DNA of 64,000 nt from Escherichia coli (GTDB lineage: Bacteria > Pseudomonadota > Gammaproteobacteria > Enterobacterales > Enterobacteriaceae), in assembly GCF_044324875.1 (NCBI RefSeq), contig NZ_CP172185.1. One strand, 5' to 3'. How positions within the stretch are numbered: the stretch's first letter is position 1; each line of letters begins with the position of its first letter. Shown in pieces: positions 62,854-64,000 of the stretch. The notes under the pieces are model-generated. The model saw only the letters and a list, made by a program, of their open reading frames with translations. It was not told where the DNA came from and made no database searches. Position numbers and translations under genes: made by a program.

Positions 62854-63137
62854 GAATGACTCCTGTCAAATTGCGCTGGCAAACGGTGTCATTATGCTGC
62901 GAATAAAAAATAAAAGTTAGCGTCTTTGTTTCTGCAAAAATACCATTCCAGGATAAATCAAAATATATTAAGAAACACCTCAAAACGCATTCATTAGAAC
63001 AATTAATATTTTCAATTCATATTTATAACGCATTGAAAATGATCGTGTTTTTGATCATCACAGCAATAGTTTGATATAACAAAGCATTCACTTCACATTG
63101 AATATCTCCCTCTTTTTCAGGGCAAGGAATGCTTTTT

Positions 63138-64000
63138 ATGTCATCAACTAATTTCAGTCAGATTGCAGCCTTCCTGTGGTCTGTCGCCGACCTGTTACGC
63201 GGCGATTTTAAACAATCACAATATGGGCGAATTATTCTCCCTTTCACTCTTCTTCGTCGTCTGGAATGCGTACTCGAAACAACGAAAGACGCGGTCATTG
63301 CCGAGGCGCAAAAAGTAAAAGCCATGAAACTGCCGGAGGAAGCCCAGGAGAAAATGATCCTGCGGGCGACTAATGGCCTCACGTTCTTTAATGCCTCAGC
63401 GATGGATCTCAGCAAAATGGGGCAAAATGGCATACAGGACAACCTGGAAAACTACATCCAGTCGTTCTCTTCGGATGCCCGCGAAATTTTCGAACACTTC
63501 AAGTTCAGCGAGTTTGTCGGACAGCTGGCGGATGCGAACTTGCTGTTCAAAGTGGTGCAAATATTCGCTAAAGCAGATTTATACCCGGAGCACGTCACCA
63601 ACCACGATATGGGGCTGGTGTTTGAGGAGCTGATCCGCCGTTTTGCCGAGAGTTCAAACGAAACCGCCGGGGAGCACTTTACCCCGCGTGATATCGTCAA
63701 TCTGACCACCTCGCTGGTGTTTTTCGATGATGATGATGCGCTCAATAAAGACGGCATCATCCGCACCATTTACGATCCAACGGCAGGAACCGGCGGCTTT
63801 CTCTCCTCCGGCATGGAGTACGTCCATAAACAAAACCCCAATGCCGTGATGCGCGCGTTTGGTCAGGAGTTAAACCCGGAATCCTACGCCATCTGCAAAG
63901 CCGACATGCTGATTAAGGGCCAGGACGTCAGCCTTATCAAACTCGGCAATACCCTTTCCAACGATCAACTCCCCGCAGAAAAATTTGATTACATGCTTTC
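63138..64000 (+). CDS. hsdM: Type I restriction-modification N6-adenine DNA methyltransferase subunit (HsdM-like), partial
   Basis: Hand translation from ATG 63138: [46 protein letters not shown]...EHFTPRDIV...[11 protein letters not shown]; continues past window end; not a K-12-type HsdM sequence. Confidence 0.8.

Follow-up and report, generated by a model that had tools for sequence, protein, structure and literature searches.

The immigration control region (ICR) of Escherichia coli consists of variable defence genes bounded by yjiA and yjiS/yjiR (PMC12707154; PMC2481252). Cassette-like replacement is established at this site, as is the occurrence of type I systems beside type IV enzymes, including homologues of GmrSD (PMC12707154; PMC2481252; PMC4437046). 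A recent review names only types IA, IB, and ID at the ICR, and little is known about the transcriptional control of type I systems (PMC12707154). In K-12, the region reads yjiA-mrr-hsdR-hsdM-hsdS, with symE-mcrBC after it. Membership of a type I family is conventionally assigned at approximately 90% identity or by subunit exchange (PMC5399793; PMC2481252), and the HsdR of strain EC958 (type ID) is reported to be 92% identical to the HsdR of StySBLI (PMC4659465). VPI-2 of Vibrio cholerae carries a T1RM with an embedded TgvAB, which is of the GmrSD type (PMC11411939).

The stretch of DNA that was analysed (64,000 nucleotides of E. coli contig NZ_CP172185.1; hereafter, the window) ends within an hsdM gene. 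Sequence past its end was read from L093, the Logan assembly of SRR31121842, which was picked up as a contig encoding exactly the window's GmrSD protein and which matches positions 50754-64000 at 99.992% identity (one mismatch in 13,247 nt). The cassette is flanked by btsT-yjiX-yjiA on the left, in the window, and by yjiS-yjiR on the right, both in L093 and in E. coli USDA-ARS-USMARC-49610 (L001; NZ_CP104123). The locus fills the yjiA-yjiS ICR and is one of its cassettes. Collectively, our observations make it probable (approximately 0.85) that a complete predicted hsdMSR system is the resident cassette of the ICR, that GmrSD and a Fic-like gene form a separate mobile type IV cassette beside it, that the spacer between them is the junction, and that the right arm of an inverted repeat in this spacer is the predicted −35 element of hsdM. 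The features on which this reading is based are as follows.

58545 to 59501, plus strand: yjiA, conserved left anchor of the ICR, recognized by synteny with annotated yjiA in L001, K-12, and EC958.
59535 to 59837, minus strand: brnA antitoxin gene, intact, 100 aa (Pfam BrnA_antitoxin, E=2.9e-17).
59827 to 59967, minus strand: remnant of the brnT toxin gene, 3' part, residues 49-95 only (tblastn with Citrobacter BrnT).
59976 to 60710, minus strand: Fic-like gene, 244 aa, on the same strand as the GmrSD gene and 43 bp downstream of it.
60754 to 62853, minus strand: GmrSD-family type IV (modification-dependent) restriction endonuclease, 699 aa (Pfam and PADLOC).
62854 to 63137, no strand: spacer between the GmrSD gene and hsdM, 284 bp, 32% G+C.
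63039 to 63058, no strand: inverted repeat ATGATC-N8-GATCAT, with two GATC sites.
63051 to 63080, plus strand: predicted hsdM promoter (own position-weight scan).
63124 to 63128, plus strand: Shine-Dalgarno sequence of hsdM, AAGGA (read from the sequence).
63138 to 64000, plus strand: 5' part of hsdM, 863 nt or 287 codons, with an HsdM_N domain and FTPR; the gene exits the window.

A preliminary description of this DNA held that a DUF262 (GmrSD) gene and hsdM diverge from an AT-rich spacer of this length, and both the ORF boundaries and the G+C content (32% overall and 27% at the centre of the spacer versus 47-53% in the flanking genes) agree. The start of hsdM is the ATG at 63138, behind the AAGGA Shine-Dalgarno sequence; an in-frame ATG at 63129 was rejected because the Shine-Dalgarno sequence would be too near and because homologues begin at the equivalent of 63138. 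The block AGGnnAAGGA before hsdM is kept across genera. Leftward from the spacer lie the genes for GmrSD and the Fic-like protein, brnA, yjiA (with a cobW Pfam domain in the gene table of L093), yjiX, and btsT; hsdR is therefore absent upstream of hsdM, as had been noted.

Extension past position 64000, which had been proposed as a check, revealed intact hsdS and hsdR genes in the 8.85 kb of L093 that lie beyond the window. The order in L093 is hsdM, hsdS, hsdR, a hairpin, a gene for a 237-aa predicted membrane protein, yjiS, and yjiR. HsdM, HsdS, and HsdR comprise 781, 429, and 1087 aa, respectively, and their genes are free of internal stops. The three genes share one orientation, overlap by 1 nt (hsdM/hsdS) and 4 nt (hsdS/hsdR), and are translationally coupled. 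The part of HsdM encoded in the window is identical to the 781-aa HsdM of L001 at 286 of 287 residues, the same layout is annotated in L001, and RefSeq already labels the hsd genes as a type I system.

The domains and motifs of the three predicted proteins are those of a type I system. Full-length HsdM has Pfam domains HsdM_N (3.5e-27) and N6_Mtase (1.2e-57), the latter a gamma-class N6-adenine methyltransferase domain, with the SAM motif I DPTAGTGGF at residue 213, in the window, and the catalytic NPPF at residue 289, just past the window end, in L093. HsdS, encoded adjacent to hsdM, has two stretches matching Pfam Methylase_S and thus two target-recognition domains. HsdR has HSDR_N, ResIII, SWI2_SNF2, and T1R_D3-like Pfam domains, a PD-(D/E)xK nuclease motif (D164...E178-x-K180), and the SF2 helicase motifs GSGKS342 and DEAH455 (numbering of L093). 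Between L093 and L001, the first recognition domain of HsdS is approximately 20% identical and the second approximately 100%, a case of classical domain reassortment, the usual route by which type I specificities diversify.

Two further observations concern the downstream genes. The 237-aa predicted multi-pass membrane protein (L093 2044-2757, minus strand), encoded between hsdR and yjiS, ends the cassette in E. coli; it matched no family above threshold, shows 90% identity in a comparison of two strains, and is missing where the locus occurs in Salmonella and Citrobacter. In a Citrobacter-like locus from a gut metagenome (L097 5346-6666), hsdS is split into ORFs of 372 aa and 78 aa, probably by a frameshift, which would inactivate the specificity subunit.

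Homologs of this HsdM are numerous. A protein search returned at least 8000 candidates, all with E <= 1e-20, and among the matches listed the relatives across Enterobacterales were 81-85% identical. A scan of species-representative genomes identified at least 80 loci with 57-97% HsdM identity, distributed among Gammaproteobacteria, Planctomycetota, Verrucomicrobiota, Spirochaetes, and others. The genes M, S, and R were consecutive on one strand in all loci in which three genes were detected (approximately 70 of the 80 fetched), and in the fetched loci extra genes of 1-4 kb often separated M from S or S from R. By sequence, this is a very widespread family with an HsdM of approximately 780 aa, an HsdR of approximately 1080 aa, and the order M-S-R wherever three genes were seen. 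HsdM of the family has its own full-length model in PADLOC (MTase_I, PDLC03029), which the present protein matches from end to end (E=8e-280).

HsdM of this family has an insertion of approximately 270 aa between the catalytic domain and a conserved C-terminal tail, for which neither a Pfam match nor a PDB sequence match was detected. An AlphaFold model of residues 456-781 has a mean pLDDT of 83.5 (approximately 95 in the core); the catalytic domain was poorly predicted in a model of full-length HsdM (mean pLDDT of 65), which was therefore left unused. Separately, DUF5655 was observed in the window (60754-61074, GmrSD residues 593-692), in L004 (14977-15900), and in L027, L044, L049, L053, and L055. 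This pattern points to a recurrent association of DUF5655 with the type I family of the locus.

The N-terminus of HsdM had been described as unlike that of EcoKI, and in a BLASTP comparison the first approximately 156 residues indeed have no alignment. The comparison with lettered families that had been proposed was run for types IA, IB, IC, and ID, and yielded low identities or weak matches. Type IA was rejected because HsdM is 27% identical to that of EcoKI over the catalytic domain only, from residue 157 on, and because the gene order is M-S-R rather than hsdR-hsdM-hsdS. Type IB was rejected on 25% identity to an EcoAI-family HsdM of O157:H7, which is encoded beside an HsdR annotated as EcoAI/FtnUII family. 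Type IC, represented by EcoR124, was rejected on weak and partial phmmer matches, which for HsdM against PDB covered residues 151-457 only (E=3.8e-26) and for HsdR a stretch of only 65 residues (E=3.6e-11). Placement of the family by published motifs, i.e., those of PAO1 (GATC-N6-GTC) and VPI-2 (GATG-N6-CTT), was also abandoned, since membership of those systems could not be shown.

Among the alternatives to our reading of the operon, one is that it belongs to type IE, the KpnBI family. KpnBI is reportedly about 25-33% identical to types IA-ID, which resembles the values for the present system, and relatives of the present HsdM occur in Klebsiella pneumoniae (82% identity, 786 aa). However, the KpnBI paper reportedly gave a longer hsdM with a best match of about 53% to genome sequences, a poor fit to the 65-85% identity seen across phyla in the present family. 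We consider this assignment unlikely, although reviews define type IE apart from types IA-ID (PMC3874165), which speaks for it.

The protein encoded at 60754-62853 has Pfam domains GmrSD_N (1.6e-34) and GmrSD_C (1.5e-27) and a C-terminal DUF5655 (6e-11), and in PADLOC it matches Orf5/HEC-06/mREase_IV. With DUF262 (GmrS) at the N-terminus and DUF1524 (GmrD, His-Me finger) at the C-terminus of a single chain, it is a predicted type IV enzyme of the GmrSD family. The Fic-like protein matches Pfam Fic below cut-off (E=2.4e-4). Its motif is degenerate (QFFFDGNKRTSR), with the catalytic His of HxFx(D/E)GNGRxxR replaced. The Fic-like gene accompanies GmrSD both in L001 (E. coli) and in L006 (Pseudocitrobacter), and its product may work together with this GmrSD instead of acting as an AMPylating toxin.

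The last 2 kb of the window (GmrSD 5' end, spacer, and hsdM 5' end) were matched in 114 of 5426 complete E. coli genomes, with a best identity of 98.0% (98.8% for the flanking core genes), and always as a chromosomal and single-copy region. The spacer itself was found in E. coli only in these 114 complete genomes, which have both GmrSD and hsdM. In Pseudocitrobacter (L006), the Fic-GmrSD genes are 79% and hsdM 96% identical to the window at the DNA level, and no similarity was detectable between its spacer and that of the window. A GmrSD gene 76% DNA-identical to the present one occurs in about 1,400 E. coli genomes, including O157:H7, at the other end of the ICR, next to yjiS, and its homology ends exactly at the ATG. 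The left neighbour of hsdM also varies: it is yjiA directly in Salmonella enterica subsp. salamae (yjiA-hsdMSR), brnT-brnA in Citrobacter and gut metagenomes (yjiA-brnA-brnT-hsdMSR), and a gene for a NERD/UvrD-like helicase in C. freundii.

In the window, BrnA is 84% identical to Citrobacter BrnA, and the brnT remnant is 45% identical to Citrobacter BrnT (tblastn, E=7e-10), with its 5' half missing. Since brnA and only the 3' third of brnT are kept, the Fic-GmrSD module has replaced the 5' part of brnT together with the brnT-hsdM interval. GmrSD-Fic is therefore a separate cassette set beside hsdM, and the spacer is probably a junction of two independently mobile defence cassettes rather than a co-evolved regulatory unit. 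As a side observation, brnA is left as an orphan antitoxin gene, the 5' half of brnT and the promoter having been replaced by the Fic-GmrSD module. These findings bear on the evolution of the region, in that the ICR exchanges whole cassettes (type I, GmrSD, and brnTA) with breakpoints at gene starts.

The spacer had been described as a control region containing a repeat with GATC sites. The repeat is present at 63039-63058, with GATC at 63041-63044 and 63053-63056; the implied reading of a dedicated control region built on this repeat was not supported, as the repeat is at chance level and polymorphic and the spacer is not kept in Pseudocitrobacter. We generated 2000 dinucleotide-preserving shuffles of the spacer and searched them for perfect inverted repeats whose arms were 6 bp long and whose loop did not exceed 12 nt. 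At least one such repeat occurred in 82% of the shuffled spacers (mean of 2.35 per shuffle), and at least two GATC in 22%. A GATC within repeat arms was found in 0.7% of shuffles, a combination chosen post hoc. The inverted repeat at 63039-63058 is no more than expected by chance. Among six E. coli alleles, its left arm is polymorphic (G/A), and in E. coli GF4-3 the right arm and its GATC are replaced, such that the −35 word TTGATT keeps TTGA and the repeat is destroyed.

The same spacer contains two longer perfect (9/9) inverted repeats. The first, 63008-16/63032-40, was dismissed as chance, since four of five further E. coli strains sampled have a different left arm. The second, 63081-63089/63127-63135 (AAAGCATTC / GAATGCTTT), would pair the stretch from the Shine-Dalgarno sequence to the hsdM start codon in a leader hairpin. 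This hairpin (63081-63135; -13.9 kcal/mol) is invariant in six E. coli alleles; it was set aside as a candidate because z = -2.0 only and its relevance hinges on the unmapped transcription start. An Rfam scan of 59000-64000 found no RNA family.

A relaxed position-weight scan of the spacer yielded a candidate hsdM promoter comprising a −35 element TTGATC (63051-63056), a spacing of 18 bp, and an extended −10 element TGaTATAAC (63072-63080). Its score of 7.0 ranks third on the plus strand, two others being slightly higher, and a strict scan for sigma-70 promoters (62700-63300) and terminators (spacer) returned no site. We aligned nine diverged upstream regions of hsdM from the subclade that occupies the ICR. 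The alignment comprised a block CATTCAT at about −150, [A/T]TGATC at about −85 in eight of the nine regions (the ninth, L095, has AATC), and TAnAAn 17-20 bp after [A/T]TGATC, often with TG before it. The last two blocks are arranged like a sigma-70 promoter whose −35 element is weak and whose −10 element is extended. Because the aligned blocks fit a promoter and because GF4-3 keeps TTGA, the right arm is most simply read as the TTGATC −35 element of the predicted hsdM promoter, and the repeat as incidental. Upstream of Citrobacter hsdM there are three copies of the word AAATGATC, which is also present in Salmonella and Pseudocitrobacter; this recurrence and the retention of TGATC leave room for a putative function beyond that of a plain −35 element.

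Such a function is the basis of a second alternative, in which the GATC repeat would be an operator or epigenetic switch, bound or modified by Dam, SeqA, or a DNA-binding protein, acting on hsdMSR and perhaps on gmrSD. In a possible variant, methylase would be produced in a burst once the cassette, unmethylated or hemimethylated, had entered a new host. The overlap of the right-arm GATC with the predicted −35 element speaks for such a switch, as do the TGATC kept at about −85 in eight of the nine diverged upstream regions, the repeated word in three genera, and the rarity of GATC-bearing arms in shuffles. However, that rarity is a post hoc figure, to be set against the frequency with which plain repeats and pairs of GATC arise in the same shuffles, and a −35 hexamer explains the conservation equally well. 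In GF4-3 the right arm is gone together with its GATC, in L095 the GATC reads AATC, and other genera show nothing equivalent to the left arm at this spacing. The locus contains no gene for a regulator, and other subclades of the family have unrelated, clear promoters without GATC. We therefore regard the switch as improbable and retain the promoter reading of the right arm; nothing suggests exceptional transcriptional control at the present locus.

A third alternative would assign the system to type ID (StySBLI/EcoR9I/KpnAI), a known ICR family with M-S-R order. Type ID was the family expected first, given the M-S-R order, the ICR site, the neighbouring brnTA, and the census in the review that names only types IA, IB, and ID at the ICR (PMC12707154). 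The chromosomal site and the hsdM-hsdS-hsdR order at a serB-linked hsd locus are indeed common to both, brnTA lies beside yjiA as at EcoMII of EC958, and type ID gives the best pairwise score among the three chromosomal families. Nevertheless, in a direct test against EC958 (EcoMII, StySBLI-like), HsdM was 28% identical and 242 aa longer (781 versus 539 aa), and HsdR was 24% identical, which refutes membership at the sequence level and renders it exceedingly improbable. The order M-S-R in common with type ID is a shared layout and not shared protein ancestry.

Since identity within a type I family is approximately 90%, the identities of 24-28% are values typical of comparisons between families, and the system is, as judged from its proteins, distinct from types IA, IB, IC, and ID. 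The suggestion that the type I locus differs from that of K-12 in family or gene order is thus borne out on both counts (24-28% identity; M-S-R). By sequence, the number of type I families observed at the E. coli ICR thereby rises to four. We also observed that the ICR of EC958, of type ID (L101 27965-36239), has the frame yjiA-brnA-brnT-...-hsdM-hsdS-hsdR, as does the Citrobacter version of the present family; two unrelated type I families occupy one slot, in one orientation, beside one toxin-antitoxin pair.

That the methyltransferase is a stand-alone orphan or that the hsd locus is truncated or decayed, as might be supposed from a window that ends after 287 codons of hsdM with nothing further visible there, is refuted for the lineage by the intact hsdS and hsdR directly downstream of hsdM in L093, L094, and L001, and can be discarded with near certainty.

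Judging from type I enzymes in general, hsdM, hsdS, and hsdR would be transcribed from one promoter in the spacer, the M2S complex would methylate a bipartite target set by the two recognition domains of HsdS, and the R2M2S complex would translocate and cut unmodified DNA. The GmrSD-Fic module would have inserted beside hsdM at the cost of the 5' half of brnT, such that the spacer must hold both promoters, both of them probably weak. The left arm of the repeat would be a lineage-specific second copy of an AATGATC-like word. The lineage is predicted to be restriction-proficient, with a specificity unrelated to that of EcoKI, which bears on transformation, transduction, and the reading of its methylome. 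The locus is a real but ordinary, database-annotated junction of defence cassettes.

Comparison with described systems places the locus among type I systems that share its site or its partners. Type ID (StySBLI; EcoMII of the ST131 strain EC958) likewise occupies the yjiA-yjiS slot with the order hsdM-hsdS-hsdR, a brnTA neighbour, and an HsdR of 1087 aa; however, its HsdM of 539 aa lacks the insertion of approximately 270 aa, and the gene upstream is Mrr-like rather than GmrSD. EcoKI (type IA) of K-12 is likewise a three-subunit system with a 1-nt overlap of hsdM and hsdS, in an ICR with type IV enzymes, but is ordered hsdR-hsdM-hsdS, has two promoters (PMC12707154), and has Mrr and McrBC rather than GmrSD as its partners. 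VPI-2 and the E. coli ICRs with GmrSD homologues likewise set a type I system, directed against unmodified DNA, beside a GmrSD-type enzyme, directed against hypermodified DNA (PMC11411939; PMC4437046). The order in VPI-2 is M-S-(inserted genes)-R, and many loci of the present family carry such inserts too, whereas the present GmrSD consists of one chain, has DUF5655 as its tail, and is encoded upstream of and divergently from the type I genes, unlike TgvAB of VPI-2, which is embedded in the operon. KpnBI (type IE) is likewise a type I system of an enterobacterium, Klebsiella, placed outside types IA-ID, and its identity to those families is reportedly in the same low range. CfrBI likewise has divergent genes, a short spacer, and a methylatable site over a promoter (PMC12707154). 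However, the site in CfrBI is the system's own target and lies between the R and M genes of one system, whereas here the site is the Dam sequence GATC, the diverging genes come from two systems that are unrelated to each other, and the repeat, besides being at chance level, is not conserved.
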